IMG/VR virus record: IMGVR_UViG_3300002835_000064
Length of the DNA: 64,000 nucleotides
Origin: a virus
Lineage: Duplodnaviria > Heunggongvirae > Uroviricota > Caudoviricetes
Direction: 5' to 3' (one strand)
This document shows, piece after piece, positions 15,484 to 54,864 of this stretch. Under the pieces are notes generated by a model. The model was given only the letters and a program-made list of their open reading frames with translations. It made no database searches and had not been told where the DNA came from. The position numbers were made by a program, and so were the translations under genes. The stretch's first letter is position 1, and each line of letters opens with the position of its first letter.

Positions 15484-15511
15484 AGGTATTGTAATAGGCC
15501 AATAAATAGTA

Positions 15512-37365: not shown

Positions 37366-37393
37366 AATCTAATTTTATAAATTAGCTTAATCA

Positions 37394-37427
37394 AAACCCG
37401 CTTGATGAAAATCAAGCGGGTTTTTTA
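37394..37427 (+). terminator. strong rho-independent terminator after gene 23
   Basis: aaacccgcttgat-gaaa-atcaagcgggttt followed by TTTTTT. Confidence 0.7.
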
Positions 37428-38266: not shown

Positions 38267-41200
38267 ATGTTAGTAGATGGGTTTAAATTCATTGATGGTT
38301 CCACTTCGGTTAATTTTGTATTACCGGTAATGTCTAAACTCGACCGTTTAGCTATGACCTCGTTAGATATGGGTGAAATTGTTTACCAATATGATGGTGA
38401 TGCTACTGCTGAAAGTGGGTTATACTTATGGTCTACCACTGCAGGTTGGGAACGATTTGGTTCAGGAACTTTAGATATATCTAAAATGCAAACCGGTAGA
38501 TTGCTACCTAGCTTTAATTCACCAATTTCTGGTGATATGGAATCTTCGGTAGATGGAACTAATTTAAAATTAGAGTTAAAATCGCATACTATCCCAGATG
38601 GTGATTTACAAGCGGATGGCTTAGCTGAATATAATTTCGTTAAAGTAAATACTAAAGGTTTAGTTGTTAGTGGTGCAAAATATACGGATATTAGACGAAC
38701 TGGTATTACGAATGTTTACACTGCAGATGAAATTAATACTAAACTTGCCGGTTACTTATCAACAAGCCAAAAAAATGTTGATGGTGGTTATGTAGCTTGC
38801 GTTAATGGTAAAATTGATCCAACCATGTTACCAGTTTATTCATCTGGTGGTGATATTATTTCAGTCGGTGGAACTTTACGATTAATTTCTAGAGGTATTG
38901 ATGCATCTAAAAAATACGATCGTGTTATTTTAAATGATGCTGGGGTCGTAGTTAGCGCAGAACAATATCACTCTATTTCTGAAGTTGCACCAGATGCAGT
39001 TACTGCGGCTGAGTTTAATGTTTTATCTAATAGTGCAATTAAAACGACACAAAAAAATCAACCAAATGGTTACGTTTCATTAGAGCCAAATGGTAAAATT
39101 AATGCATCATTTTTACCGAGTATTACGACTAATAATATTCAAGTTATTGCATTAGACGCGGATCTTATTAATGTAGTAAGTCAGGTTGGTGATGTTGTTC
39201 TTACTTTAGATCAACGTAAAACTTATATTAGACGACATGTTTCATCTCCAGTTGCGATAGGTGATTGGGTTGAATTATTGCAACCGGTTAGCCAAGTTAG
39301 CTCAATTAATAATAAAGCCGGAACTATATCGCGTTTAGATTATGATGATATCAATAATTTAGCAGAATCAGCTCGAGTTGATACAACAAATGCTAGTTTA
39401 ATTTCTAAAGGAACGTTATCTGTTGGTAGATTACCTCTATTTTGGGGTGATGTTGAATCAGTCGCCGGTAGTAATGAATTGACATTAAAACAAAAAAGTT
39501 TACTTCCAGGCTGGTATAATTCAGTTCATGTCGATAATAAAGGTTTAGTTTATGAAGGTGAACTTAAATCAACTATCGCCGATCTTGGTATTAAAGACGT
39601 TTATAATAAAACCGAAATTGACTCACAATCATTAGCATTCGAACGTTTATATAATAAAAATAGAGCAAATGGTTATGCTGGGTTAAATGCAGACGGCTTA
39701 ATTAATACAAATCAATTACCACCTTTATCAATTACTAATGTTCATTTAATTGATGTTAAATTAGATGCAGTTAATTTAACTAATGCTAAAAAAGGTGATG
39801 TTGCTATTGCAAATACTGATAAAAAATCATATATTTTGATTGATAGTGATTATGCAAATCAATATAATTGGCAACCATTATTAACCCCAGAAACTGGAGT
39901 TATTTCAATTAATGGTAAAAAAGGTAGTTTGCGCTATTTGGAAGCTGCTGATATTAATGGTTTATCTCGATCAGCAATAGTTGATACGACAAATGCATCT
40001 AATATTACATCTGGAAAATTAATTCCTGCAGTGTTACCTGATTTTACTGGCGATGTTATTTCATCTAACGGTACCGTTTTAAAATTAACTGATAAATTTT
40101 TAGTTGATCCAGCTGTTAAATTTAATTGGGTTCGAGTCGGTAAAGATGGTCGTGTTTATGACGGCGGTGCGTACAATACTATTAGTGAAGCTTGTGCTGA
40201 TGCCGTATCAACAACCGAATTATCAAATCAATTGCAAAATTATGTTTTAGCAAAAGATTATAATTTACCAGGAACTTACGCTCGATTAGGCAATGACGGT
40301 AAAATTGATATTCATTTATTACCTGATTTAGCATTAACTGATACTTTTGTTATTAGTGATGATATTTCAACTTATGATGGATATGTCGTCGGTAATACAG
40401 CAAGCGATCTTAGTTTACAATCAGTTCTAAAAAAATTAAATGGCTTTTCACCATCTAATTTAACTGGTCATAATTACGGAACTACCATTCCAAATAAAGG
40501 TGACGTTGTTATTGCTCAAGCCGCATCAAGAACTTTCATCTTAGCTGATAATTCATTATATGACGGCGCTTGGAAAGAAATGTTATCTCCTATGGATGGG
40601 GTATTTACTATTGGGGCTGGGGCTGATTTACAAAAAGGTTATATTAATAAAATTAAAGTTGCTAATATTGATGGTTTAGCTCCATCTGCTACTATTAATA
40701 CAACAAACGCTACTAATATCACAACTGGAACTTTAGCATTTGAAAGATTACCAGTTTTTGATAGCGAAACTGTCGCATTTAATAGAAATAATGTAGCAAT
40801 GTCGCCTGATTTCGTTCATAGCGATGTTTCATCTTATTCTAGTAAATATCCAAATTTATTAATATTAAATGATGTTTCTTCATTGAATAATATAGACGCA
40901 TCAAAAACGTATACTAAAGTTAAATTTAATAAAAAAGGTTTAATCGTCGATGCATCAAACCCAACAACATTAAATGGTTATGATATTACCGATGCTATTT
41001 GGCAATCACAAATTCATAATACAACCATTAAACGTAATATTGCTGGTAATCCATTAGATGTGAATAATGTTATTATTCCAACTGATGCAAATGGTAAAAT
41101 AGCAACTGGTGATTTGCATAAAGCGGTTATATTAACTAATGGATCAACTCCATTAAAAGGTATTGCGGAATTAGATGCAAATAACTACATTATGTTAGAT

Positions 41201-42802
41201 CAAATTCCATTCTCAGTTGGTGCTCATGTTGTTTGGAGTGATATTCCAGATCGCCCTCGCGGAACTTCGGTTGATTATAATGTCGGTTCACAATCATCAT
41301 CTAAAGGCGTATTTGCATTAGACGGAACTACCATCGATCCAGTTACTAATTTAGCTATTAAACCAGAAGTTGTTTTAGGTAATGATTATCGTTTAACTGA
41401 CGATCGTTATCCAACCGCACATAAACATGCATGGGATGATATTAATAATGGTATAGTAAATACTGATGCTGCATATAGAACTTTACCTGAATTAATGGAT
41501 GGTAAATTAATTAATGGTGTTTTAACTGGCGGTAAAGCAGATAAGTCAGAATTGCGAGATGCTATTGAAAATATTACTGGTGTCTATACCTATATAGATG
41601 AAAATGCAGCAGACGGTTCAACTTCAACAGTTCCAGCTTTGGGTAATTATGATACTTTAGCTAGATTGTACGGTTGGATTATGGGTAAAGTAAAAGAAGT
41701 TGTTATTGATAATAATAGCGATATTTTAACTACTCAACTTGATTTATCAGTAAAAGCACCATTTACATTATTCGTCAAACATGATGATAATGATCCAGAT
41801 CAAAACAATTGGGCGTTATATAGAGTTTTTAAAATTAAAACCGTCGGCTCTATTAGTACTATCGAAAGTTTAAATGATATAACTAAAGTAACTGATAATA
41901 GTTTATATACCGCATTATCAGATCAAACATTTAAAGAAAAATATAATACTTTAACAGGTTGGAATACTGATAGTAATCATAAACGTATCGAAGTAACTGC
42001 AATGGCCGGTGATGCGAATATTGCGATTACAGATGGTGAATATTATAAATGGTATATTAGTACATTATCAGCCAAAAAACGTCCAGTATTTGAAGATTGG
42101 GCTAAAGCACCTTATTTTGAATCAACTACAACCGTTGCTGGTGAAGCACCACTTAAAGTTGCATCTAAAGTAAAAGTCGATAATTTTAATACTGATTTAA
42201 TTAACGGTGTTCAAGTCGGACCAACCCCAACTGCTGAAAATTTAGTGTTAGTAACTAAAGCTCCAGTTGCTGGTCAAACTATTACTTCAGAATGGAAAGC
42301 TCATATTAATGGCGGTGAGAATTTTACATCAGGAACAGTAAATCATGTTCCTTATGTTAGTGCTGCATATACTATGAATTCTATGACTGGCGTTACATAT
42401 AATTCAACTGATGATGTATTAACTATCGCAAAATCAGAATTGACTTATACTAAGTTTAAAGGTTATAGTGAAACTGTTATTAAAACCGCGGCTAATACTT
42501 TAACAATTGATTTAACTGCAGCTACGGTATTTAAATTAAATGCGAATTCCGATAATATTACTATCGCATTCCATTCTAATTTTACAATGACAATGGCGGC
42601 CGGTAGATCATTTACTATTATTCTTAAATATGGTAACTATCCAAACGGTAATACAATAACTTGGCCATCTCAAGTTATTTGGACTGAAAATAATACCAGA
42701 CCAACACCGTCTGGCGCTAACGCAACTGATATTTTTAATTTTATTTGTGATGGTGATTATGTTTACGGTAGTATTTCAGGTCAGTTGTATAATGCAAACT
42801 AA
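38267..42802 (+). CDS. long tail fibre protein (1511 aa)
   Basis: N-terminal domain shared with the fibres at 53350 and 54962; recurring modules (VDTTNAS..I..G.L....LP.F.GDV.S..G...L.L.); R-x-TD-D-R-x-P-x-x-H-K-H motif (YRLTDDRYPTAHKHAWDDI). Confidence 0.7.
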   Translation: MLVDGFKFIDGSTSVNFVLPVMSKLDRLAMTSLDMGEIVYQYDGDATAESGLYLWSTTAGWERFGSGTLDISKMQTGRLLPSFNSPISGDMESSVDGTNLKLELKSHTIPDGDLQADGLAEYNFVKVNTKGLVVSGAKYTDIRRTGITNVYTADEINTKLAGYLSTSQKNVDGGYVACVNGKIDPTMLPVYSSGGDIISVGGTLRLISRGIDASKKYDRVILNDAGVVVSAEQYHSISEVAPDAVTAAEFNVLSNSAIKTTQKNQPNGYVSLEPNGKINASFLPSITTNNIQVIALDADLINVVSQVGDVVLTLDQRKTYIRRHVSSPVAIGDWVELLQPVSQVSSINNKAGTISRLDYDDINNLAESARVDTTNASLISKGTLSVGRLPLFWGDVESVAGSNELTLKQKSLLPGWYNSVHVDNKGLVYEGELKSTIADLGIKDVYNKTEIDSQSLAFERLYNKNRANGYAGLNADGLINTNQLPPLSITNVHLIDVKLDAVNLTNAKKGDVAIANTDKKSYILIDSDYANQYNWQPLLTPETGVISINGKKGSLRYLEAADINGLSRSAIVDTTNASNITSGKLIPAVLPDFTGDVISSNGTVLKLTDKFLVDPAVKFNWVRVGKDGRVYDGGAYNTISEACADAVSTTELSNQLQNYVLAKDYNLPGTYARLGNDGKIDIHLLPDLALTDTFVISDDISTYDGYVVGNTASDLSLQSVLKKLNGFSPSNLTGHNYGTTIPNKGDVVIAQAASRTFILADNSLYDGAWKEMLSPMDGVFTIGAGADLQKGYINKIKVANIDGLAPSATINTTNATNITTGTLAFERLPVFDSETVAFNRNNVAMSPDFVHSDVSSYSSKYPNLLILNDVSSLNNIDASKTYTKVKFNKKGLIVDASNPTTLNGYDITDAIWQSQIHNTTIKRNIAGNPLDVNNVIIPTDANGKIATGDLHKAVILTNGSTPLKGIAELDANNYIMLDQIPFSVGAHVVWSDIPDRPRGTSVDYNVGSQSSSKGVFALDGTTIDPVTNLAIKPEVVLGNDYRLTDDRYPTAHKHAWDDINNGIVNTDAAYRTLPELMDGKLINGVLTGGKADKSELRDAIENITGVYTYIDENAADGSTSTVPALGNYDTLARLYGWIMGKVKEVVIDNNSDILTTQLDLSVKAPFTLFVKHDDNDPDQNNWALYRVFKIKTVGSISTIESLNDITKVTDNSLYTALSDQTFKEKYNTLTGWNTDSNHKRIEVTAMAGDANIAITDGEYYKWYISTLSAKKRPVFEDWAKAPYFESTTTVAGEAPLKVASKVKVDNFNTDLINGVQVGPTPTAENLVLVTKAPVAGQTITSEWKAHINGGENFTSGTVNHVPYVSAAYTMNSMTGVTYNSTDDVLTIAKSELTYTKFKGYSETVIKTAANTLTIDLTAATVFKLNANSDNITIAFHSNFTMTMAAGRSFTIILKYGNYPNGNTITWPSQVIWTENNTRPTPSGANATDIFNFICDGDYVYGSISGQLYNAN

Positions 42803-42823: not shown

Positions 42824-42856
42824 AAATGGGGTTAATTATATTAACCCCATTTTTTA
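42824..42856 (+). terminator. rho-independent terminator after the 1511-aa fibre gene
   Basis: aaatggggttaat-tat-attaaccccattt followed by TTT. Confidence 0.55.
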
Positions 42857-42941
42857 TGCCCTCGATAAATCAATTTTACCCATAAATAACATATTATGAC
42901 TAATTAGTACTTACCTTAAGTCCCATTCATTATGAGTAATT

Positions 42942-45900
42942 ATGTTTATATCTAAACCCCTATTAAATACTAGATTATTTACTGCCGCCACTATATTATT
43001 ACCATCAGATCCGTTACCGGCGGTTGTAGCTTCTGTTTTTTCGTATTCGCCTATAGATACATTAACGGTTAGAGGCGGAACTAAATATCGGGCAGATAAT
43101 GGAATACATCCATATCGATATAAATTAGTTGGATCTAATGATGTTGGTATTACTATCGATGAGTTTACTGGTGCAATAACAGGAACTATATCTCGAATTA
43201 ATGCTAAATTTTTAAATATAACATTAAGATTAGAAGTCGCGGATTTCCATAATATTCGAGCTAATTTTAATGATCCTATTGTTAATTTAGGAACAAAAAA
43301 ATATTGCACTATCGATATTAAAGTTTCATGGCCTGCCATAGTCGTTACTACACCAGCAAATAAAGCAACATTAAATAAAAATATGGATGATACTGTTAGT
43401 TTCAATCCATTTACTTATGCTGACGGTCATTATGATATAGTCGGTGGTGCAAGTGCGGGTGGGACTTTTGCTGATGCCGATTTTAAATATTATTTCGACT
43501 CGGAAAGTTTACAATTAGCGTTTCCCGAAGCAGTCCACGGTTCAGCTTTTTTTAATACTATAACCGAAACTTCGTTCGGTGATTTAATTTTAAATCCAGA
43601 TACTGGTGAAATTACTGGGCGATTAAATCATTATTTTAATCCTATGTTTAATCATACAGCCGGAACGAAGAATATGACGTTACCGGTATTCGTTCGAGAT
43701 AAATTTAGAAATAGCAGTAATGTTATTAACGTTCAATTTAATTTAACTTTAGAGCCGATTGCGATTATACCTGCACCACCTATTGATATTCATGTTACGG
43801 ATGGTAACCCAACTGATATATCTATACCGATAACTAATGGTAACGGTAATGGTGGTGTTGGGCCTTTTGATTATACATTTAATGATAATAGATTAACTGA
43901 TGAAGGTTTTAGAATTGTAACCGGAGATGATGGTGTTACTCGATTAGTAAGAGATGATGCTAGTTCTGGAGGTACTGGCGGATCAGGAGGTACTGGTGGA
44001 TCAGGAGGTACTGGTGGATCGGGAGGTACTGGTGGATCAGGAGGTACTGGTGGATCAGGAGGTACTGGTGGATCAGGTGGATCAGGTGGTACTGGAGGAA
44101 CTGGTGGATCAGGTGGATCAGGTGGTACTGGAGGAACTGGTGGATCTGGAGGAACTGGTGGATCAGGAGGTACTGGCGGAACTGGTGGAACTGGCGGAAC
44201 TAGTTCGACTATAACTGTTACCGACGGAGCTGGTCAAACCACAACTATAACGATTTGGGTTGAAGTCGTACCTGATATCGTATTAACAGCAACTAATCAA
44301 ACTATTATATTAGTAGTAAATGATCCATTAAGTTATTATGATGATAATTCTAAATCATATTATAACAAATATGTTTTAGATCCGTTTAATGGCACGACGG
44401 GTGGGTATCCAGTAAGTACCGCCGGCGGAGTTAGTGTTTATAAATCATATACTAGTTCGAATGTTTCTGTCCCGATCGGTTTAACCACTGGTATAGTAAC
44501 TAGAACATCATCGTTTGCAAATCCTAGCACCGATGGTTCGACTAAAAGTATTTTTACATTAACTGATAATTATGGGTTTACTAAAACTATCACCCATACA
44601 TATTTAATTTATCCAGCATTAGCCGCTTCGGTCGTTACTAGTTTACCATTAAAGGGTAATAATACGCAGTATAGAACTAAATCATTTTATAATGAATCAT
44701 CATTAGCTATATTCGAACCAATTACAGTAACAGCCGGTTCTGGTTCATATGTTTATCATATAAAAAGTACGACTGACGGTGCTATTATAAACGGAACTAC
44801 AACCGATACAACCGACAAATATCAATTAGATATTAGAACTGGCGAATTATCATCAATTACGCAAGTTACTGGCGTCGGTCAAAAATTAATTGAAATTGAA
44901 GTTACCGATACTATCACTAAACGGGTAGTTAATGGATTATTTGTTCAACTATCCGTCGATTATAAACCATTTATTGTTGTTGATAACCCGGTCACGATAC
45001 CGGCGACCGAAACTATTCGAGGAAGTGCGTCTACTTATACTCCGAATACTATAACTAGTGGTAATGGTTCTTATACTTGGACCGTATCGGTCGAATCAAC
45101 GAATTCTCATAATACGACAGATTATGGTAATGTTTCTATCGATGCTAGTGGTATTGTTACTTATACTCCACCAATAACGTTACCGTCGGATATAAGAACT
45201 AATCCATCGGTTAATATAACAGTTACAGTTACTGATGTCGCATTAAGTGATTTACCGTCCGGAACACATACATATACATTTACCAGACCATTAGCATTAC
45301 CGGCAAATACTCCAGGAACTATTATATTAACTGGAGCTATTTCGGGTGCATATTATTCAGATACTGCAATTACTGCATCACTATCTGATTTCGATGATGT
45401 TGTTGGTAATGTTATTTGGTCTTTAATTCCATCTAATAATGCGGCACCGACTATAAATCAAACATTAGATAATGCATCAAGCGTTACTTACAATTCTAGT
45501 GTCGGGACTGACGTTACAGTAACCGCGACATATACCGATACCTTAGCTTCTAATCAAAGAGCTCAAACAACATTTAATATAAGACAAAGTTCAACCAAAA
45601 TAACAGATTTACCGACTGACGGTCCGTTCATAGATTATCCAGTTCCGCCGGGTATTATATCGATTGATGTCATCGTAAATGGTGGCGGTGGTGGTGGCGG
45701 TGGCTGGGATTTATTAACCGGAGGTGATGGTTGCGATGGTGATTCTATCACTGCCACTTTCGATGTTAATGTCGGTGAAAATCTACAAATTTATATTGGT
45801 GCTGGTGGTGCTGGCGGTACAGTTGTATACGACCAATTCCATTGGGATCAAATCAATAGAATACCGAATGATAAATTACCAAATATTATAAATCCAGCTA

Positions 45901-48404
45901 AATTAGTTGCATTATCAACTCCAACCCAACCGCTAGTAAATGTATCATCATTTGTAAATGGTGGTTGTAAATGGTATAATGATAATGCAATATGGGATAG
46001 CACTACTGATTGGGGTAGTACTCCGCGAGTTTGGACTAGAACTATTAATTTCCCACGCGATTCAAATTACGTATTTACGTTCTGCGCAGATAATATCGGA
46101 ACTGTATCAGTCGATTCAAATATTGTCGTTGATATATCAATTATGACTTCGACTAATCCTAATTTTACTAATACCAATTGGGGCCATCAATATTTAACGA
46201 AAGGTGATCATGTTATAACTATTGAAGCTAAAAACGCCGGCGGTGATGCTATTTCCGGCCACGCTGGATTTGCTTTAGATATAGTCGATTCTGGTTCTGG
46301 TTATACAGCTGGTGGTGTTGGTGGTAGAGCTGGGAAAGCTGGTGATTCTGGTTCTGGTGGTTGGGGTGGCGGTTCTTCAGCTATTTTACGAGCGGATGGA
46401 ACAGTTATGGTTGTTGCGGCTGGTGGAGCCGGTGGTGGTGGTGGTGGTAATCAAGCCAAAGGTAAATCAGCAGATTGGAATGTGATTAATATCGGTGGGG
46501 CAATAGATGGCGGTAATAAAGGAACTGGTGATGGTGGCGGTGGCGGTGCTGGGGGTGGTGGAGCGCCAGCCGGGTACGGTAGTATTTTAATTGGTCATGG
46601 TACTGGTGGTTTAGTTAATACTGGCGATAAAGGTGGTGAGGCAGGTAGTAAAGGTAGATCTTATATTAACCCAATAATTGAAGATTGGGCTATAAACCCA
46701 GCTGGCAATAAAGGTTTACTTAGTACCAAAACTATTACCGGTGATGCCGGAAATGGGGGCGTATGGATTACTGCAATACCAAAACCACCAATGACAAAAA
46801 TGCTTCCTGATGATGTTGCTAATCAAGCCGGAGCTAACTTCGGAACGGTTATTGCTTATAGTGGAGATGGTACCAGAGTTGTTATTGGATCACCATTAGC
46901 GGGACCGACGGATACTGGGGCTGTGTATATATTTGTGGGTAATGGTAATACATGGACTCAAGAAGCTAAATTAGTTTCGTCTAATATAGTAGATGGTGAT
47001 CATTTTGGTTCTGCTGTCGATATAACTTATAATGGCGATCGCATTATAGTCGGAGCCCCTAATGCTAATGCATTGCCTTATAATCAAAATGATTCCGGTG
47101 GTGCTTATATATTCAAACGTAATGGAACCTCATGGACCGAAGAGTTTTATATTACTGGTGGTAATGGCGGAGCCAACGATTATTTTGGTAGTGCAGTTTC
47201 TATTAATAGTGATGGGTCTATTGTAATTATTGGTGCCAGTGGTGATGATACTGGGGAATTAGCGCAAGTCGGTTATGTTTATGCGTATTATCGAGCCGGT
47301 AGTGTTTGGGCTAATTTAGATTGGAAAACTGATGCAGAAATAATACCAGCCCATGGTTCTGAAGCTGGAGCGATGCATGGTTCTGCAACGGCATGTAATT
47401 TAGCTGGCGATCGGGCTATTGAAGGTTCACCAACTGATAATAATAACGTAAAAAATGTAACTAATTGCGGAACCGTAACTATTCATCATAAAAATAAAGG
47501 CATTCCTGGCTGGAAACATGTTAGTTATGGTAGTTGGGGTTCATTTATGAATAAGTATGCGATCTGGTCCGGTCCATTTACTGCAAATAGAACGGTTACT
47601 ATAACCACACCCATAACTTTTCCAGCTTTCGGCTTGTATTGGGTACAAATGGCTGCGGATAATAATGTAGAGTATTATATGCTCGATATGGGGTCAAATA
47701 ATTATTCGGGATTTACGGGCTCGCAAACTTGGTTTATTAACATTCATAATCAACTTACTCAAGATTTAACATTAACTATTCGTAATGGTAGTGGATCAGG
47801 TGGTAATCCGGCAGGTGTTGCAGTTAGAATTACGACATACGAAGATAATAGTGAAGTATGGACTACCTTAAATTTAGTTGATTCTGAATGGACTAGAGAA
47901 TTATGGATCGATGCCCCGTTCCCAATAAAAGATGGTCATTTTGGTGCTAGTGTCGATATGGATGGTAACGGTGATCGTGTTGTTATTGGGGCTCCGGATG
48001 AAACGCAATCTGGTTTAGTTAAAGCTGGCGCAGCTTATGTTTATAGACGAGCCAATTCAACTTGGATTTATGAAGGTAAATTAACAGCATCGGATAAGGA
48101 AGCCAATACTAATTTTGGTTCGGCCGTTTCGATTAATGGGGCGGGTGATGTTATCGCGGTAGGTGAAATGAAAGCAAATGCGATTGGATTAGTTGCTTGT
48201 GGTGCAGTTTATATTTACAAGCGAGTCGGTAAGGTATGGACTCAGTATACTAAATTAATGGCGAATGATAAAGCGGCGGGAGATAATTTTGGATGTTCGG
48301 TTTCTTTAAATAATGCCGGAACACAAGTAGTAGTGGGAGCTAAAAACAAAAATCGCCAAGCAATTGGAAATGCTGGCGCAGTTTATTATATACCAATAAA
48401 TTAA
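42942..48404 (+). CDS. multi-domain adhesin-like virion protein (1820 aa): N-terminal Ig/cadherin-like (He_PIG-like) module, (GGTGGS)n linker, Ig-like domains, PA14-like domain, Gly-rich segments, C-terminal FG-GAP beta-propeller
   Basis: He_PIG-like D.FNPF..GG.G.F.Y.FD...LP.G..L....G.I.G motifs; PA14-like SNYVFTFCADNIGTVSVDSNIVVD...KGDHVITIEAKNAGGDA; at least 6 FG-GAP repeats (HFGSAVDITYNGDRIIVGAP...GGAYIF, YFGSAVSINSDGSIVIIGAS, HFGASVDMDGNGDRVVIGAP...GAAYVY, NFGSAVSINGAGDVIAVGE, NFGCSVSLNNAGTQVVVGA). Confidence 0.6.
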   Translation: MFISKPLLNTRLFTAATILLPSDPLPAVVASVFSYSPIDTLTVRGGTKYRADNGIHPYRYKLVGSNDVGITIDEFTGAITGTISRINAKFLNITLRLEVADFHNIRANFNDPIVNLGTKKYCTIDIKVSWPAIVVTTPANKATLNKNMDDTVSFNPFTYADGHYDIVGGASAGGTFADADFKYYFDSESLQLAFPEAVHGSAFFNTITETSFGDLILNPDTGEITGRLNHYFNPMFNHTAGTKNMTLPVFVRDKFRNSSNVINVQFNLTLEPIAIIPAPPIDIHVTDGNPTDISIPITNGNGNGGVGPFDYTFNDNRLTDEGFRIVTGDDGVTRLVRDDASSGGTGGSGGTGGSGGTGGSGGTGGSGGTGGSGGTGGSGGSGGTGGTGGSGGSGGTGGTGGSGGTGGSGGTGGTGGTGGTSSTITVTDGAGQTTTITIWVEVVPDIVLTATNQTIILVVNDPLSYYDDNSKSYYNKYVLDPFNGTTGGYPVSTAGGVSVYKSYTSSNVSVPIGLTTGIVTRTSSFANPSTDGSTKSIFTLTDNYGFTKTITHTYLIYPALAASVVTSLPLKGNNTQYRTKSFYNESSLAIFEPITVTAGSGSYVYHIKSTTDGAIINGTTTDTTDKYQLDIRTGELSSITQVTGVGQKLIEIEVTDTITKRVVNGLFVQLSVDYKPFIVVDNPVTIPATETIRGSASTYTPNTITSGNGSYTWTVSVESTNSHNTTDYGNVSIDASGIVTYTPPITLPSDIRTNPSVNITVTVTDVALSDLPSGTHTYTFTRPLALPANTPGTIILTGAISGAYYSDTAITASLSDFDDVVGNVIWSLIPSNNAAPTINQTLDNASSVTYNSSVGTDVTVTATYTDTLASNQRAQTTFNIRQSSTKITDLPTDGPFIDYPVPPGIISIDVIVNGGGGGGGGWDLLTGGDGCDGDSITATFDVNVGENLQIYIGAGGAGGTVVYDQFHWDQINRIPNDKLPNIINPAKLVALSTPTQPLVNVSSFVNGGCKWYNDNAIWDSTTDWGSTPRVWTRTINFPRDSNYVFTFCADNIGTVSVDSNIVVDISIMTSTNPNFTNTNWGHQYLTKGDHVITIEAKNAGGDAISGHAGFALDIVDSGSGYTAGGVGGRAGKAGDSGSGGWGGGSSAILRADGTVMVVAAGGAGGGGGGNQAKGKSADWNVINIGGAIDGGNKGTGDGGGGGAGGGGAPAGYGSILIGHGTGGLVNTGDKGGEAGSKGRSYINPIIEDWAINPAGNKGLLSTKTITGDAGNGGVWITAIPKPPMTKMLPDDVANQAGANFGTVIAYSGDGTRVVIGSPLAGPTDTGAVYIFVGNGNTWTQEAKLVSSNIVDGDHFGSAVDITYNGDRIIVGAPNANALPYNQNDSGGAYIFKRNGTSWTEEFYITGGNGGANDYFGSAVSINSDGSIVIIGASGDDTGELAQVGYVYAYYRAGSVWANLDWKTDAEIIPAHGSEAGAMHGSATACNLAGDRAIEGSPTDNNNVKNVTNCGTVTIHHKNKGIPGWKHVSYGSWGSFMNKYAIWSGPFTANRTVTITTPITFPAFGLYWVQMAADNNVEYYMLDMGSNNYSGFTGSQTWFINIHNQLTQDLTLTIRNGSGSGGNPAGVAVRITTYEDNSEVWTTLNLVDSEWTRELWIDAPFPIKDGHFGASVDMDGNGDRVVIGAPDETQSGLVKAGAAYVYRRANSTWIYEGKLTASDKEANTNFGSAVSINGAGDVIAVGEMKANAIGLVACGAVYIYKRVGKVWTQYTKLMANDKAAGDNFGCSVSLNNAGTQVVVGAKNKNRQAIGNAGAVYYIPIN
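43966..44207 (+). repeat. about 13 tandem copies of an 18-nt unit (GGAGGTACTGGTGGATCA) encoding (GGTGGS)n, with a few 12-nt variants
   Basis: Tandem periodicity read directly in the sequence; in frame inside ORF 42942-48404. Confidence 0.8.
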
Positions 48405-48413
48405 TTTAGTAAT

Positions 48414-49529
48414 ATGCATATATCAAAACCAAATTCCGAAGATAGAATTTTTGCAGCAACTAATATACTGATGCCCGAAAATGGTAAAGTTATTTTAGTT
48501 CGTGATACTATTATTTACTATCCAATCGATGCGTATACCGTACAAGGTGGAACTAGATTTAAAACTAATCCATGGACTAGTCCATATCGCTACAAGTTAG
48601 TCGGTCCTAATGCTCTTGGTTTAGTTATTAATTCTAAAAACGGTAAGATATCCGGAACTGTAAATCCAATATCAACTAAAACAAAAATAGTTCCGGTAAA
48701 AATAGCGATATTTGATAGTATTAATAAAAAATGTAATTTTTCCGACCCGCTAAATAATTTCACTAGAATAAAATTTTGTACTATTTATTTTGACGTTAGA
48801 TGGCCGCCTATTAGTGCAGCTATAACTAAAACATCATTAATTATTAATATTAACGATACTATAGACTTTAATCCATTTGTTAATAATGGGGTTTCTGTTG
48901 TTACTGGCGGAACTGGTAAAAGTTTTAAATATGAATTCGATGTCGACTATTTAAAATTATTATATCCGCATATTTCATTCGGACCTAATATTACAAAAAA
49001 AACATTCGGTAGTTTATCACTTAATAATAATACCGGAAAAATTACTGGGACTATATCAACAGAGTTCTTAGAATTTTTTAATAACAATAAATTCGGAACT
49101 AAAATAATTCCATTATATTTTATCATTAAAGATAGATTAAATAATATTAGTGGTGTTGATAATGACGGTAAAATTTACAGTAGAATTAAGATTGATTTAT
49201 CATTAACTGTAGATGAATTATATATTTTAACTCCTCCAAATCCAATTAATTTAACCTTAGCCAAAGCGGTTGATAATACTAACCAATCATTTACTGTTAT
49301 ATCTAAAATTGGCGGGGGATTAAAACCGTATACAGTTTCCTTCGAATCTAAAACTTTCGATAAACATTTTCAATTGATAATTCAGTCAGATGATTCGGTT
49401 ATTATCAAACCTAAAACGGTCAATTTGCCGGAAATACCCCGCATTAACAATCAATCGTCGGCAAAAGTTAACGTTATTGATTCTATGGGGCAATTCGCCT
49501 ATATTACTGCGTTTATAGAAGTTCATTAA
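48414..49529 (+). CDS. 371-aa paralog consisting only of the shared N-terminal Ig/cadherin-like module
   Basis: MHISKPNSEDRIFAATNIL..., RYKLVGPNALGL, DFNPFVNNG...GKSFKYEFDVDYLKLLYP... are colinear with the first ~370 aa of ORFs 42942 and 49615. Confidence 0.55.
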   Translation: MHISKPNSEDRIFAATNILMPENGKVILVRDTIIYYPIDAYTVQGGTRFKTNPWTSPYRYKLVGPNALGLVINSKNGKISGTVNPISTKTKIVPVKIAIFDSINKKCNFSDPLNNFTRIKFCTIYFDVRWPPISAAITKTSLIININDTIDFNPFVNNGVSVVTGGTGKSFKYEFDVDYLKLLYPHISFGPNITKKTFGSLSLNNNTGKITGTISTEFLEFFNNNKFGTKIIPLYFIIKDRLNNISGVDNDGKIYSRIKIDLSLTVDELYILTPPNPINLTLAKAVDNTNQSFTVISKIGGGLKPYTVSFESKTFDKHFQLIIQSDDSVIIKPKTVNLPEIPRINNQSSAKVNVIDSMGQFAYITAFIEVH

Positions 49530-49614
49530 TATGATAGAACAGGTAAAATTACCGTTGATAAAGATAAATATCATATTATCCATTTATACCATTTTAACCA
49601 TACCGTGAGTAATT

Positions 49615-52600
49615 ATGTTTATATCAAAACCATTATTAAATACTAGATTATTTACTGCAGCTACTGCTAGTTTACCGGCGAATAATACAGTAGAAGTCGA
49701 AGTAAATTCATTAGTATCATTCTCACCAGTTAATTCTCTTACTATAAGAGGTGGTACTAAATATAGAGCAAATAACTACGCATTCCCGTATAGATATCAA
49801 TTTATCGGAACTAATACATTAAATTTAACTATCAATAACCAAACCGGATTAGTTAGTGGAACTATTCCAAGAATTAATGCAAAATCGATAACTTCAGATG
49901 CAATGAAAATAGAAGTTGTTGATTTTCAAAAATATCGAGCTAATTTTGCGGATAGATTAGATAATTTCAAAAAAAATCGATATTGTGAAGTTTTATTTAA
50001 AGTTGTTTGGCCGGCTATCGTCGTTTCAATACCCCAAAATAAATTATCATTTGCTCAAAATATGGATGATACTGTTAGTTTTAATCCATTTATTGATGCG
50101 AATAATAATTATGTGGTTTCTGGTGGGGCAATGGCGGGCGGAACTTATGCGGATGCCGGATTTAAATATGAATTTGATATTGATAAATTAAAAGAAGTTT
50201 ATCCATCAGTTCCATTCCTTAATGATATATCGGCGACTACTTTTGGTGATCTATCTATTAATAACGATACTGGTTTAATAACTGGGAAATTAAATGATAA
50301 ATTTTTAACATTTTTTTCAGATCATGTTCCTGCTACTAAAAATAAAGCATTATATTTTATAGTTAAAGATAAATTCGATAACAAATATGGTGTGGATAGA
50401 GATGGGAATATTAATAACCGAATTAGTATTAATTTAGCGTTAACTCTAACTGAATTAACGGTCGATGCGCCAGCAACCGCGGCTAATTTATTTTATTTAA
50501 AAAGTTGGTTTAATCCACAAAATCCATCTCCAATAAAATTAATTAATAATGTAACATTAGGTATTAAACCATATACATATACTTTCGCATCAACAGTTTT
50601 TCCGGATAATGGTTTAGCATTAGCCCAACAAGCTGATGGGTCTGTTAATTTAACCCGACCTTTAGGTGCAACAAATCAAATATTAGCTGCAAATAACGGA
50701 ACAACTGCAGTTATTAATATAACAGATAAAGTAGGCCAACAAAAATCAATAACTGCATTTATTGAGATTCGAGATAATATTTGGTGGGATGATGGGAACA
50801 CTGGTACTAGAAATTTTGATATTGCTGTCGGTGATGGATTATTGACGATATATGACGATAATACAAAATCATATTATAATAAATTTGTAAAATCACCATT
50901 TCCTAACTTGACTGGCGGTTATCCGGTTTATGCATTTACTGCATCAAATAATTCAACGACTATCAACGCAACTACCGGATTGGTAAATAATCAATCATTT
51001 GCTACGGTCGGATCATATACTAATGATTATACAGTCACTGATTCGAAATCGTATACATGGTGGGTAAGACATAATTATAAAGTTTGGCCAAAATTAATTG
51101 CAGTTATTGATTCTACCTTACCGTTAGTAAATAATAAAAAAACAAAAATATATTTTGCAGAAACTAATTTATCTAATTTTAAACCATTCGAAATAACGAC
51201 TGCTGGTTCTGGAACTTATAAGTATGCGATAACTGCATCTAGCGGAACATATGCTAGTCGTTATTCAATGAATGAGGATACTGGCGCCATATCAACTGCT
51301 ACTATAGTAATGGATGACGCCGCAGTTACTAATTTTACAGTTATGATAACGGATATAGTTACTCATGTCGTAATAACGGGCGAAGTTCAGATTAATACCA
51401 AACCAGCTAAAGTTTCAATCAATCCATTAACCTTTACTTATCCATTAAATGAAGTTAATGGATTTTCTCCATTTACTGATGTTTCTTCGAATAATACAAT
51501 AACATCTAAATTATCTGGCGTTCCCGTATTTAAATATAGTTTTGTTACGTCGGCGTCTGATACTGATTCTGGCGTCGCAACCAAAGATTATTATACCATC
51601 GACTCAACTGGTAAAATTACATATACTGGTAATGGTTTACCATTCGATATGGCAAAAACAATTCTATATGTTAAAGTAGCTGATAATGATTCACCTACTG
51701 TAGTTAAACCAGCAATTGCAACGATTACCTTATTTGGATTAACTATTACTTTTTCTGGTTTAGCTCCTCAAATTGGAAGTTCTCTTTCAGTCAGTGGATT
51801 ACCGTCTGGCGCCTCAGGTATGACATATCAATGGTATACTGTTGATAATGGTGTAGCGTCTATATTATCTGGATCTACTGGGACTACATTTACGCCTGCT
51901 GCAACCGAAACCCATAAAAGTATAGCAGTCGTAGTAAATTACGTATCCGACGGTTTTAAATATTCGGTTAGTTCATTAAACTCGGTTACTGTTTTAGCAG
52001 CAGATGAAACACCAATTTCATTCTCGTATCCAGTATTTGCATATAAATGGAGTAAAACAAATGTAAATAATTTTGGTCAGGCTGATATGGATGGTTATTT
52101 TGCGGTTTATGGTCAAGGGACGATAACTAATGCGCCTAGAATTGGCGGCGGCGGTTTTAGCGCTCAAGGTGGGGCGAGTGTTTGTTACGTAACTAATATA
52201 TCAGGTCATCCATCCGCGAATACTGCTGCGGATTTAACAGCAGCTAGTTATTCGTCTAGTGGGTATATCGACGTTCAAAAAACTAATATTTACGAAGCAT
52301 TTAAATTCGAATTAAAAACTATATTAACAGACCCCACATTTAAAAATATTAAATATTTTGCATTCGTAGTTCATGACTTAGCATCAGTTTTGCGGACTGT
52401 CGGTTCACAATTAACCTATAAGTTATATGATTTCGAGAATCCTAGTGTTATTTTAGATAGTACGGCAATGCAGGAACCAGGTAATGGTTATATATTTAAA
52501 ACCAATATGGCGTATGATGGTAGTGCAGCATCTGCAGTCGTTTTAGGATATTTTACTAGATACGAATCGGTTTGGGTTTATACGCCGAAAATGGTTTATT

Positions 52601-53280
52601 TACCTGGTTCTGGTGATAGCGACCCGAATATATCCGGATTACATTTAGATGCACCGAAAGTAGTAGTTCCTCCTAATCATGCACCGACTGGTTCAATTAC
52701 TATAACTAGTAATAATGCAGCTAATGCCGCCGGTTGTACATTATCATTAACTAATACCGTAGCTGATGCTGATGGATTAGGGACTTTCTCATATCAATGG
52801 AAAGCCGACGGAACTGCAATTGCGAACGCAACAGCGGCTACTTATAAAACAGTAGCTTCGGATAACGGTAAAGTTATGACTTGCGAAATGAAGTATACTG
52901 ACGGTATTGGAAATTTAGAGACTATTACAAGTTCAAATTCAATTACCATTACACAAAATCATCCAGCAACTCTTACGGTTACTCTAACGGGAACCGGTAA
53001 AATAGGCGAGAATTTAACCGCTACTATAACTAATGCATCGGATGCGGAAGGATTAGATTCAAACGCATATCAGTACATGTGGAGTTATAGCTCGAATAAT
53101 CAATTGCGAAATGGTTTCAACGCACCAAATTCGGGGTCGTATTATAATAGTTCTACGTATCCAGTTCAAGCTCCACTAGTAGTGGGCAATGCGGTTTATG
53201 TCCGTGTTTGGGTAACCGACGCATTGGGTGTAGCGAGTGGGTGGGCTGAAAGTAATGATATTATAGTTGCTGCGGCGTAA
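49615..53280 (+). CDS. 1221-aa paralog: shared N-terminal module plus C-terminal Ig-like (Y-Q-W...GAT..TYT) repeat domains
   Basis: MFISKPLLNTRLFTAAT start identical to ORF 42942; the 20-nt context including the ATG (GAGTAATTATGTTTATATC) is duplicated; C-terminal repeats MTYQWYTVDNGVASILSGSTGTTFTP and FSYQWKADGTAIANATAATYKTV resemble those in fibre 5465-7045. Confidence 0.6.
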   Translation: MFISKPLLNTRLFTAATASLPANNTVEVEVNSLVSFSPVNSLTIRGGTKYRANNYAFPYRYQFIGTNTLNLTINNQTGLVSGTIPRINAKSITSDAMKIEVVDFQKYRANFADRLDNFKKNRYCEVLFKVVWPAIVVSIPQNKLSFAQNMDDTVSFNPFIDANNNYVVSGGAMAGGTYADAGFKYEFDIDKLKEVYPSVPFLNDISATTFGDLSINNDTGLITGKLNDKFLTFFSDHVPATKNKALYFIVKDKFDNKYGVDRDGNINNRISINLALTLTELTVDAPATAANLFYLKSWFNPQNPSPIKLINNVTLGIKPYTYTFASTVFPDNGLALAQQADGSVNLTRPLGATNQILAANNGTTAVINITDKVGQQKSITAFIEIRDNIWWDDGNTGTRNFDIAVGDGLLTIYDDNTKSYYNKFVKSPFPNLTGGYPVYAFTASNNSTTINATTGLVNNQSFATVGSYTNDYTVTDSKSYTWWVRHNYKVWPKLIAVIDSTLPLVNNKKTKIYFAETNLSNFKPFEITTAGSGTYKYAITASSGTYASRYSMNEDTGAISTATIVMDDAAVTNFTVMITDIVTHVVITGEVQINTKPAKVSINPLTFTYPLNEVNGFSPFTDVSSNNTITSKLSGVPVFKYSFVTSASDTDSGVATKDYYTIDSTGKITYTGNGLPFDMAKTILYVKVADNDSPTVVKPAIATITLFGLTITFSGLAPQIGSSLSVSGLPSGASGMTYQWYTVDNGVASILSGSTGTTFTPAATETHKSIAVVVNYVSDGFKYSVSSLNSVTVLAADETPISFSYPVFAYKWSKTNVNNFGQADMDGYFAVYGQGTITNAPRIGGGGFSAQGGASVCYVTNISGHPSANTAADLTAASYSSSGYIDVQKTNIYEAFKFELKTILTDPTFKNIKYFAFVVHDLASVLRTVGSQLTYKLYDFENPSVILDSTAMQEPGNGYIFKTNMAYDGSAASAVVLGYFTRYESVWVYTPKMVYLPGSGDSDPNISGLHLDAPKVVVPPNHAPTGSITITSNNAANAAGCTLSLTNTVADADGLGTFSYQWKADGTAIANATAATYKTVASDNGKVMTCEMKYTDGIGNLETITSSNSITITQNHPATLTVTLTGTGKIGENLTATITNASDAEGLDSNAYQYMWSYSSNNQLRNGFNAPNSGSYYNSSTYPVQAPLVVGNAVYVRVWVTDALGVASGWAESNDIIVAAA

Positions 53281-53349: not shown

Positions 53350-54864
53350 ATGTTATCCGACGGCTTACAATTTCTCGCGGGAGCAGTAAATACAAATTTT
53401 TCACTTCCGTTTACTAATAATTTATCCACTGTCGTTAACGCGACCCGAGGGGATTTAGTTTACAATACTGGGATTAACCCAGGTCTTTATATTCATGATG
53501 GAGCTAAATGGGTTTTAGGCTTAGATTTAGGACCACAAACCGCTACACCCGATGCTGAAGTAACTACAAATAAAGGCATTGCTGGTGGATATGCTGCATT
53601 AGATACTAATAGTTTATTATTAACAGCTAACTTACCAGCATTTACTGGAGATGTTACTTCAAATGCCGGTTCTAATACTCTATCATTAAATGCAATTCCT
53701 TGGAGTAAACTATCAGGTAAACCAACCACATTATCAAATTACGGTATTATCGAAACTGATGATTTATTAGTTGGTTTAATGAATAGTAAAGTTTCAAAAT
53801 CTGGTGTTGCATTAGCCGCAGGCACGGCAATTAAAGTTACCTTTAATTCAAATGGTTTAATCACAGCTGCTGGTTCATTAGCATTATCTGATATTCCGGA
53901 TTTACCTTGGAATAAAATTACAACTGGTAAACCGACTGCATTAACTGGTTATGGTATCACTGAAGCTGATCCATTATTAATGGCGATATCTAACTCTAAA
54001 ATAAATAAACCAAGTACCGCTTTAACGCCAACTACAGCCACCAAAATTTCATTTAATGAAAATGGTTTAGTTACTAGTTCTGGTTCATTATCAGCTAATG
54101 ATATTCCTATTATACCTTGGTCTAAATTAAATAATACTCCGACTTTATTAACTAATTATGGTATTAGTGAAGCTGATCCATTATTAATGGCATTATATAA
54201 TGCCAAAGTTCAAAAATCGGGTGCTATGTTGACAGCCGGAACTGCAACTAAAGTTACTTTTAATGCTAGTGGTTTAATAACTGCATCTAGTCCATTAACC
54301 GTTTCTGATTTACCTGCCGGTTCATTAACTACGACGTCAGATTTAAATTGGGATAGAATTACCAATCATCCAACTACATTAGCTGGTTATGGTATAATTG
54401 CAACTGATACTATATTAACGGCTATTACTGATTTGATTACTGGTGTTAATGGTGGATCATCTGCTATTACAGCAGATCCAACTATTAAAATAGTTCGAGT
54501 AAATGGCGATAATTATAATATAACAGTTGCTGATAATGGTAAATTTTTACAAGTAAACGATGAAGTTAATAGATCAATTATAGTTCCTGCGGTTGGTGTT
54601 TTAACTATAGGTAAAAACTTTACCGTTTATAATCAATCACCTAATTATATAACAAACGTAGTAATTCCGGTTGGTTATACAGTTCGTCAAAGTGGGGATG
54701 CAACTATAAAAATTAATGGTGCTAATGGTGGTAAAATTGTCATCGCCCCATTCTGTAAAGTTACTTTATTATTTACGTCGGAAGATGGAACATCAACTGG
54801 ACCAACATCAGCAGTTAATCAAATTATTGTAGATGGTGTTTTTGATACTGCATCATTAACCTAA
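53350..54864 (+). CDS. tail fibre protein (504 aa) with repeated LPAFTGDVTS-type modules
   Basis: N-terminal MLSDGLQFLAGAVNTNFSLPF...GDLVYNTGINPGLYIHDGAKW is paralogous to 38267 and 54962; four ~45-aa repeats (S.L.A.DIP.LPW.KI...PTTL..YGI.E.D). Confidence 0.6.
   Translation: MLSDGLQFLAGAVNTNFSLPFTNNLSTVVNATRGDLVYNTGINPGLYIHDGAKWVLGLDLGPQTATPDAEVTTNKGIAGGYAALDTNSLLLTANLPAFTGDVTSNAGSNTLSLNAIPWSKLSGKPTTLSNYGIIETDDLLVGLMNSKVSKSGVALAAGTAIKVTFNSNGLITAAGSLALSDIPDLPWNKITTGKPTALTGYGITEADPLLMAISNSKINKPSTALTPTTATKISFNENGLVTSSGSLSANDIPIIPWSKLNNTPTLLTNYGISEADPLLMALYNAKVQKSGAMLTAGTATKVTFNASGLITASSPLTVSDLPAGSLTTTSDLNWDRITNHPTTLAGYGIIATDTILTAITDLITGVNGGSSAITADPTIKIVRVNGDNYNITVADNGKFLQVNDEVNRSIIVPAVGVLTIGKNFTVYNQSPNYITNVVIPVGYTVRQSGDATIKINGANGGKIVIAPFCKVTLLFTSEDGTSTGPTSAVNQIIVDGVFDTASLT

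Follow-up and report, generated by a model that had tools for sequence, protein, structure and literature searches.

Three adjacent genes of an uncultured jumbo phage, here denoted A, B and C (the trio), encode paralogous proteins that share an N-terminal unit and differ in what follows it. They lie on the plus strand of a 64,000-nucleotide stretch of IMG/VR virus record IMGVR_UViG_3300002835_000064 (the window; coordinates in Table 1). The common unit (N-module) is a conserved 17-residue peptide followed by three predicted cadherin- or He_PIG-like beta-sandwiches. B consists of this unit alone and C carries immunoglobulin (Ig)-like repeats, whereas the outer part of A is made up of a glycine-rich domain and an FG-GAP_2 propeller of seven blades, both of which have a PA14-like domain nested in them. 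We consider it fairly probable that the three are late-expressed proteins of the virion exterior, accessory adhesins built on a common base with exchangeable cassettes.

Genes A, B and C share an N-terminal unit

BLASTP showed that A and C are 45% identical over residues 1-352 (7e-80) and that a second colinear block follows between A415-742 and C358-671 (34%, 7e-32). All 371 residues of B align with C (39%, 1e-77), and B matches A at 37% over residues 1-264 (7e-45). The start of the genes is duplicated as well: A and C have the context TGAGTAATT-ATG-TTTATATC(T/A)AAACC, and a diverged copy, TTAGTAAT-ATG-CATATATCAAAACC, is found in B. The open reading frames (ORFs), the alignments and the ATG context all confirm the three-gene paralog family that an earlier reading of the letters alone (the sequence-only reading) had placed here. 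That reading described the family as colinear modules of ~370 residues, with the short member as the module by itself. This holds for B, which ends exactly at the module end, and falls short for A and C, which are colinear over ~740 residues.

The most conserved part of the family is the 17-residue N-terminal peptide (MFISKPLLNTRLFTAAT in A). It is identical at 17 of 17 positions between A and C and in P0027, the C-type protein of a sister phage, and at 16 of 17 in P0003, the A-type protein of that phage. The first 51 nucleotides of A and C differ at five sites, all of them synonymous. Since the peptide is identical and the differences are synonymous, selection and not recent gene conversion has kept it.

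An AlphaFold2 (AF2) model of B, computed from a 7-sequence alignment, reached a predicted local distance difference test (pLDDT) score of 78.9 and a predicted template modelling (pTM) score of 0.66. It places beta-sandwich domains at roughly residues 20-130, 131-268 and 269-371; residues 1-17 are disordered (pLDDT below 50). Foldseek comparison of the model with the PDB returned tandem cadherin and protocadherin ectodomains first (E 6e-11), in agreement with the Ig/cadherin-like module that had been proposed. The BFVD search with the same model gave many phage Ig-tandem proteins of mixed annotation and was uninformative on location. He_PIG (PF05345), named earlier as the family to check, stayed below the Pfam cut-off, and found its support in reciprocal profile comparison and in the fold. 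A search of 1.84 billion representative proteins with the N-module profile brought up only three full-length relatives, one each of the A, B and C type; the other 50 hits matched in multiple stretches, and the two that were checked, P0028 (2.5e-24) and P0029 (5.5e-20), each contain nine He_PIG repeats. By profile and fold, the domains of the N-module are thus predicted to be He_PIG/cadherin-like despite the Pfam scores. With B and C as queries, tblastn gave no match in 50,697 phage records, and no N-module relative was found among IMG/VR contigs, indicating that peptide and three domains, as a unit, are restricted to this phage and a single sister lineage.

In A, the third N-module domain is interrupted by a (GGTGGS)n repeat, an expanded loop that precedes the two final strands; these are supplied by the stretch behind it, A419-445 (SSTITVTDGAGQTTTITIWVEVV), which aligns with the corresponding strands of B and C. 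The alignment therefore contradicts the earlier description of the repeat as a linker behind the module. The repeat is absent from P0003, which has ~8 residues in its place. Two assemblies, L007 and L008, break inside the 18-nucleotide repeat (window ~43931 and ~44136), probably as an assembly artefact. Copy-number variation of the repeat was considered and rejected: where four other contigs overlap the window, identity is 100%, and two of these contigs break in the repeat.

Comparison of B with a 91%-identical variant yielded a dN/dS of 0.07. The B ortholog of the sister phage has 372 residues, is 59% identical and occupies the same position. These comparisons indicate that B is a functional gene under strong purifying selection. 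In a variant strain (L014, L015) aligned with 48206-50120, B has 86-92% nucleotide identity along most of the gene and the flanking A end and C start have 95-100%, a pattern that suggests local mosaicism around B.

The distal parts differ between paralogs and between sister phages

The homology of A and C extends past the N-module into a second module (A446-760), which is also common to both sister orthologs; it is 34% identical to C, and A419-787 is 53% identical to P0003. Additional He_PIG domains were considered for this module and rejected, hhalign against the N-module profile giving a probability of 0.6%. An Ig-like repeat of the Y-Q-W type follows at A761-893. Of the Ig-like domains previously claimed for A, this one repeat was recovered, and the searches with A446-760 returned nothing in support of an Ig nature.

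In the sister phage the gene order is kept, with products of 1509, 1761, 52, 372, 1233, 485 and 5372 residues. P0003, the ortholog of A, shares A1-342 (58%), A419-787 and a single Ig repeat. Beyond this point it has five or more additional Ig repeats in the place where A has the glycine-rich, PA14 and propeller cassette (A894-1820). These repeats match those at the C-terminus of C, and P0003 also matches PHROG 1149. The comparison shows a swap of cassettes between the sister lineages, probably by recombination distal to the shared part; the likely recombination boundary is the repeat A761-893, beyond which A and the sister ortholog have no segment in common. A recent foreign origin of the A cassette was considered because of its GC content (0.41-0.43 against 0.31-0.34), and rejected because the GC content of third codon positions is uniform in all domains (0.15-0.27). 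The uniformity implies that the excess comes from Gly and Ala codons and that acquisition of the cassette was not recent.

For C, the Y-Q-W Ig-like repeats of the sequence-only reading held up. PHROGs 4069 and 1407 match residues 1016-1111, PHROG 4069 ('Hoc-like head decoration') at 7e-7, and the terminal repeats are ~40% identical to repeats of p526 and p624, which neighbour the baseplate wedge gene. The stretch between the Ig repeats, C791-1015, matched no family.

A carries a glycine-rich domain, two PA14-like domains and an FG-GAP_2 propeller

The first part of the A cassette (A894-1290) behaves as one conserved unit, a Gly_rich_2 domain with a PA14-like beta-sandwich nested in it; the glycine-rich host domain had been overlooked in the earlier reading. 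Gly_rich_2 (PF21722) scores 29.8-32.5 bits against a cut-off of 24.3, a match limited to positions 4-73 of the 226 in the profile. Thirty-two metagenomic proteins of 440-700 residues, one of them in a jumbo-phage-like contig, align across A906-1275, and among the 33 family members Gly_rich_2 is found in 23 and PA14 in 17 (best 1e-5). Against the PDB, the family profile matched a PA14 domain-containing protein (6qdi_A, 7e-7), an RTX adhesin (7.5e-4) and anthrax PA (0.19). In the AF2 model of A881-1290 the PA14-like core has a pLDDT of 62-90, and the top Foldseek matches are PA14-bearing glycoside hydrolases of families 3 and 31 (GH3, GH31) and carbohydrate-binding modules of families 6 and 35. 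A second PA14-like domain is inserted in blade 4 of the propeller, between its third and fourth strands, and matches the family profile with an hhalign probability of 90% (E 1.5e-6). Profile and fold comparisons thus support two nested PA14-like domains, one in the glycine-rich domain and one in blade 4. The earlier claim of a PA14 domain survives at this level, below the cut-off of Pfam PF07691 and for two copies where one had been described.

The A881-1290 model (45582-46811) also matched the glycine-rich (TG) domain of ALK/LTK in Foldseek (E ~2e-3, ~450 columns). As a lead only, the match suggests a polyglycine-II lattice in which a sandwich is embedded; sequence profiles gave no match of the glycine-rich unit to gp38 or ALK. 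Seven of the 32 standalone Gly_rich_2/PA14 homologs (including P0087, P0094, P0101, P0103, P0105 and P0106) contain Hint (intein/hedgehog-type) domains, suggesting an autoprocessing C-terminal part in that family.

The second part of the cassette is a propeller. FG-GAP_2 (PF14312) matches it at 3.5e-48 with 162 bits, against a cut-off of 23, in 6 stretches. FG motifs occur at seven positions (residues 1300, 1355, 1415, 1479, 1667, 1725 and 1783), and the blades align once the ~117-residue insert of blade 4 is taken out, so that the seven repeats would be able to close a ring. Judged by eye, blade 1 seems to be preceded by the seventh W-strand (VWITAI, ~residue 1272), which would thereby close the ring. 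PF01839 gave no match on A at E up to 1, no canonical integrin-type DxDxDGxxD calcium loops are evident in the blade alignment, and integrin alpha-IIb appeared among PDB sequences only at E 0.1. The FG-GAP propeller of the sequence-only reading is therefore real; it belongs to FG-GAP_2 and not to the PF01839 or integrin type, and has seven blades, not six. Failure of profile searches for FG-GAP or PA14 had been named as grounds for refutation, and these searches found FG-GAP_2 strongly and PA14 at the level of profile and fold.

The propeller is most closely related to bacterial multi-propeller proteins of the FG-GAP_2 family, whose genes lie in cellular contexts. By tblastn with A881-1820, four of the 50,697 phage records match: Vibrio phage nt-1 twice, with a 402-residue FG-GAP protein in a non-structural neighbourhood, an uncultured freshwater phage, and Sinorhizobium jumbo phage Phosso, with a 3692-residue hypothetical protein with repeats. 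No PHROG covers the propeller region of A. In a full-text literature search, FG-GAP was not connected with jumbo phages in any paper; the terms FG-GAP, bacteriophage and tail fiber were named together only in two related giant-virus papers. It is fair to call the FG-GAP propeller rare in sequenced phages, as had been claimed, yet not unique to this phage.

The trio lies in a late cluster among fibre-like genes

The source of the window is an uncultured jumbo myophage, a relative of Xanthomonas phage XacN1. It encodes a T4-type major capsid protein at 35965-37365 (PHROG 138, 3.6e-90), whose top match among the phage records is that of XacN1 (56% identity), with other phages of 300-380 kb ranking next. 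The trio and neighbouring late genes lie on the plus strand a few kb downstream of this gene. Fibre-like genes flank the trio on both sides: p240, p1511, p504 and an ORF of ~5730 residues match tail-fibre or virion-structural PHROGs. To the left, on the minus strand, are genes for baseplate wedge, hub/lysozyme, a tape-measure-like protein and both topoisomerase II subunits. In the trio region, the window agrees at 100% identity over 11-13 kb with four contigs that come from other samples and reach up to 84 kb in length. Megablast gave no match for the trio locus, and the XacN1 region downstream of the capsid gene is not colinear and holds no counterpart of the trio.

Exact matches to the promoter-like motif ATAAATANNATATTA occur four times in the 64 kb, at 42882, 49564, 53300 and 54912, all on the plus strand, and sit 50-60 nucleotides upstream of A, C, p504 and the giant ORF. 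One-mismatch copies lie at 15502 (+), 1771 (-) and 42045 (+), and two other ORFs are preceded by such copies. A version of the motif with NNN spacing was rejected, as it was found no more often than expected by chance; NN spacing gave the four exact matches. TATAAATA is the late promoter of T4. The motif resembles it, and XacN1 encodes a late sigma factor; ATAAATANNATATTA is probably the late promoter of this phage. B starts 9 nucleotides after the A stop and lacks a motif of its own, which suggests that it is co-transcribed with A. A sigma-70 promoter scan was uninformative (91 sites against 91.5 expected). Two hairpins followed by U-runs, one behind the capsid gene and one between p1511 and A, look like intrinsic terminators; a simple terminator scan had listed neither.

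A proposed common base with different loads, and the alternatives to it

On the reading we favour, the common base, peptide and three sandwiches together, would attach all three proteins at one site, or one kind of site, of the particle and serve as a stalk, with the peptide as the presumed docking element, and the distal cassettes would bind ligands of the host surface or of a matrix. A would display the glycine-rich domain and the propeller, each with its lectin-type PA14-like domain, and C the Ig repeats around a 225-residue domain of unassigned type. B, without a load, would fill docking sites as a stalk or spacer only. Cassettes would be swapped between related phages by recombination beyond the shared part. 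The fibre-like neighbours favour attachment to the tail or fibres over the capsid.

Several points weigh against this reading. Presence in the virion, docking, glycan binding and the site of attachment are read from gene position, the late-promoter-like motif and the types of domain. On these grounds the glycan-binding adhesin or decoration toolkit of the sequence-only reading is plausible. The N-module lacks a characterised homolog, and its docking role would follow by analogy with fibre and tailspike families that share an N-terminus. Searches of Pfam, PHROGs and NCBIfam with A, B and C found no trimeric fibre or beta-helix fold and no baseplate- or capsid-binding domain, and tandem Ig-like domains are generic, occurring in capsid, tail and non-virion proteins alike. 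Direct Pfam scores are low: He_PIG reaches 20.1 bits on B and 17.1 bits on A against a gathering cut-off of 24, and PA14 (PF07691) 15.9-18.8 bits on A, also against 24. The AF2 model of A881-1290 has an overall pLDDT of 58, with low confidence in the glycine-rich part, and module 2 and C791-1015, without a PDB sequence match, have no assigned fold.

The same domains could instead decorate the capsid. T4 hoc lies shortly downstream of genes 23 and 24, and the position of the trio a few kb downstream of the major capsid gene recalls this arrangement. If the N-module bound the capsid lattice, the distal domains would project towards environmental glycans or mucus-like matrices, and the monomer-type beads-on-a-string architecture, so different from trimeric fibre folds, would fit, as would the match of the C repeats to Hoc-like PHROG 4069 and of P0003 to PHROG 1149. 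Strong terminators, however, separate the capsid gene and p1511 from A, and the immediate neighbours on both sides are fibre-like. The PHROG matches cover generic Ig repeats only, and such repeats also occur in p526 and p624 beside the baseplate wedge gene. Hoc binds the capsid through its C-terminal domain, whereas the common part of the trio is N-terminal. We regard capsid decoration as the less likely reading, roughly a one-in-four prospect, but as a serious alternative.

Two further explanations dispense with docking altogether, and both seem to us improbable. If the conserved N-terminus were an export signal, the proteins would be secreted or cell-surface adhesins of the infected cell with no role in the virion. 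The basic residues K5 and R11 followed by a moderately hydrophobic stretch, and domains that are all extracellular in type, are in keeping with export, as is a bacterial relative, P0014, that combines FG-GAP_2, Gly_rich, Ig_7 and a type IX secretion system (T9SS) tail. Phage-encoded T9SS cargo, including a PA14 protein, has been described in a Bacteroidota phage (PMC7468147). Pfam and NCBIfam, however, detected no T9SS C-terminal sorting domain (Por_Secre_tail) in A, B or C, and the hydrophobic stretch would make a weak Sec signal (10-residue Kyte-Doolittle maxima of 1.2-1.96, with the A maximum at residue 25). The peptide is conserved as a specific sequence and not as generic hydrophobicity, and the trio shares promoter motif and cluster with fibre genes; we give export very little weight. 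Tandem duplication, for its part, would explain the colinearity and the duplicated start context by itself, with the N-module as an inherited spacer and B as a truncated by-product, and Ig-like tandem domains are often passive spacers. Any attachment of the individual paralogs would then be achieved in some other way. Such a by-product is hard to reconcile with the strong purifying selection on B and with its unchanged position and length in a 59%-identical lineage. Although their codons have changed at synonymous sites, the first 17 residues are conserved far better than what follows in the module, and the C-termini share nothing that could serve as a common anchor; this explanation, too, we hold to be poorly probable, about on a level with export.

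The docking-base reading could be taken further, to a plug-in display system not described before, with a clade-specific docking unit, alternative heads on one site, and a head-less B that sets adhesin density or spacing. The propeller with its nested PA14-like domain would then be a new receptor- or matrix-binding head, taken long ago from bacterial surface proteins. This extended version is tentative, and we would not bet on it as a whole. The host range of phages and their adhesion in the environment depend on modular surface proteins, and the locus offers a clean natural example, with one base, three loads including an empty one, and a documented cassette swap between sister lineages. Complete FG-GAP_2 propellers and nested PA14-like domains are both almost absent from sequenced phages. 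The distal cassettes could point to host surface glycans, and the N-terminal unit, if self-sufficient for docking, could provide a handle for foreign binding domains on a jumbo phage.

Relation to known systems

That a conserved N-terminal unit can carry exchangeable distal ends is already known from other phages; what is unusual in the trio is the combination of domains. CBA120 TSP1-4 and the RaK2-type branched fibres are paralogous tailspike and fibre sets with a shared N-terminal anchor. The trio resembles these sets in its adjacent late genes, its conserved N-terminus with divergent or exchangeable C-termini and the exchange of cassettes between relatives. It differs in that no trimeric beta-helix or fibre fold was detected, in a shared part that has no homolog in the phage records, and in a member, B, that has no distal domain. 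T4 Hoc has about four domains, of which the C-terminal one binds the capsid. With Hoc the trio has in common tandem Ig-like domains, proposed there for weak glycan adhesion, and repeats in C and P0003 that match Hoc-like PHROGs; in contrast to Hoc, its proteins reach 1820 residues, share their N-terminal part and end in propeller, PA14-like and glycine-rich domains.

The A propeller is 28-41% identical to repeats of bacterial FG-GAP_2 multi-propeller surface proteins (P0004-P0011) and falls in the same Pfam family. Those proteins have cellular contexts and many repeats, whereas A has one seven-bladed ring with an insert in blade 4 and a phage-specific N-terminal unit. The best fold and profile matches of the PA14-like domain are GH3 beta-glucosidase KmBglI (3abz/3ac0) and GH31 alpha-xylosidase (2xvg), in which PA14 is likewise inserted into another domain, and the sugar-binding PA14 domains of RTX adhesins; in A the host domains are a glycine-rich domain and a propeller blade, and the sequence similarity is below the Pfam cut-off. 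A906-1275 aligns with the N-terminal 340 residues of standalone Gly_rich_2/PA14 phage proteins (P0079-P0110) at ~31-36% identity. These have 440-700 residues with the unit at the N-terminus, some with a C-terminal Hint domain, whereas the unit of A is internal. The glycine-rich domain in the distal part of a phage protein also recalls the polyglycine-II receptor-binding domains of T-even gp38 adhesins and the glycine-rich domain of ALK/LTK, a resemblance that serves as a lead only. Polyglycine adhesins of the gp38 type have been documented (PMC12032242, PMC12892980).

Features of the locus and neighbouring genes

Table 1. Features of the trio and its surroundings (window coordinates; aa, amino acid residues)
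Feature	Position	Strand	Description and basis
Gene A	42942..48404	+	1820 aa ORF; 100% identical in four contigs from other samples; Pfam
Gene B	48414..49529	+	371 aa ORF; N-module alone
Gene C	49615..53280	+	1221 aa ORF
Domain anatomy of C		+	aa 1-386 N-module; 387-700 module 2; 701-790 Ig; 791-1015 unassigned; 1016-1221 two Ig; ORF, PHROGs
N-terminal 17-aa peptide of A	42942..42992	+	most conserved part of family
N-module of A (aa 1-445)	42942..44276	+	three cadherin/He_PIG-like beta-sandwiches, Gly-rich insertion in third; alignments, B model, profiles
18-nt tandem repeat, (GGTGGS)n (aa ~341-418 of A)	43968..44198	+	12.8 copies; Tandem Repeats Finder
Module 2 of A (aa 446-760)	44277..45221	+	common to C and both sister orthologs; BLASTP, alignment
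Y-Q-W-type Ig-like repeat of A (aa 761-893)	45222..45620	+	A755-892 against P0003 1058-1189, 34%
Gly_rich_2 domain with nested PA14-like beta-sandwich (aa 894-1290)	45621..46811	+	one conserved unit; Pfam, homologs
PA14-like domain 1 (aa ~1000-1116)	45939..46289	+	sub-cut-off Pfam, family profile, Foldseek
FG-GAP_2 beta-propeller, seven-bladed (aa ~1291-1820)	46812..48401	+	Pfam, seven FG motifs, blade alignment
PA14-like domain 2 (aa ~1523-1639)	47508..47858	+	insert in blade 4, between third and fourth strands
Promoter-like motif ATAAATAACATATTA, upstream of A	42882..42896	+	exact ATAAATANNATATTA match
Promoter-like motif ATAAATATCATATTA, upstream of C	49564..49578	+	exact ATAAATANNATATTA match
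Terminator-like hairpin and U-run, after capsid gene	37393-37424	+	z -7.0
Terminator-like hairpin and U-run, between p1511 and A	42825..42855	+	fold -16.2 kcal/mol, z -4.5
p1511	38267-42802	+	1511-aa fibre-like gene; adjoins A upstream
p504	53350-54864	+	504 aa; fibre PHROG matches
Giant ORF	starts ~54962, leaves window at 64000	+	5730 aa in identical 84-kb contig

The GC content of the window in 2-kb steps is 29-42%, mostly ~31-34%. The ORF-poor stretch past 54.9 kb was considered as a tRNA array and this was rejected: no tRNAs were found, and the stretch is one giant ORF. The giant ORF matches tail-fibre PHROGs 7389 and 26941, and its counterpart in the sister phage has 5372 residues. Around the trio, p1511, p504 and the giant ORF form a second paralog family, with a shared N-terminus (ML.DG..F..G) and internal repeats; the 40 nucleotides upstream of p504 and the giant ORF are almost identical (TTTGGAGTTAAT.TTAT-ATG). 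A third paralog pair, p624 (3572-5446) and p526 (5465-7045), adjoins the baseplate wedge gene on the minus strand, and its two members have a shared N-terminus of their own, with 52% identity over the first 192 residues.

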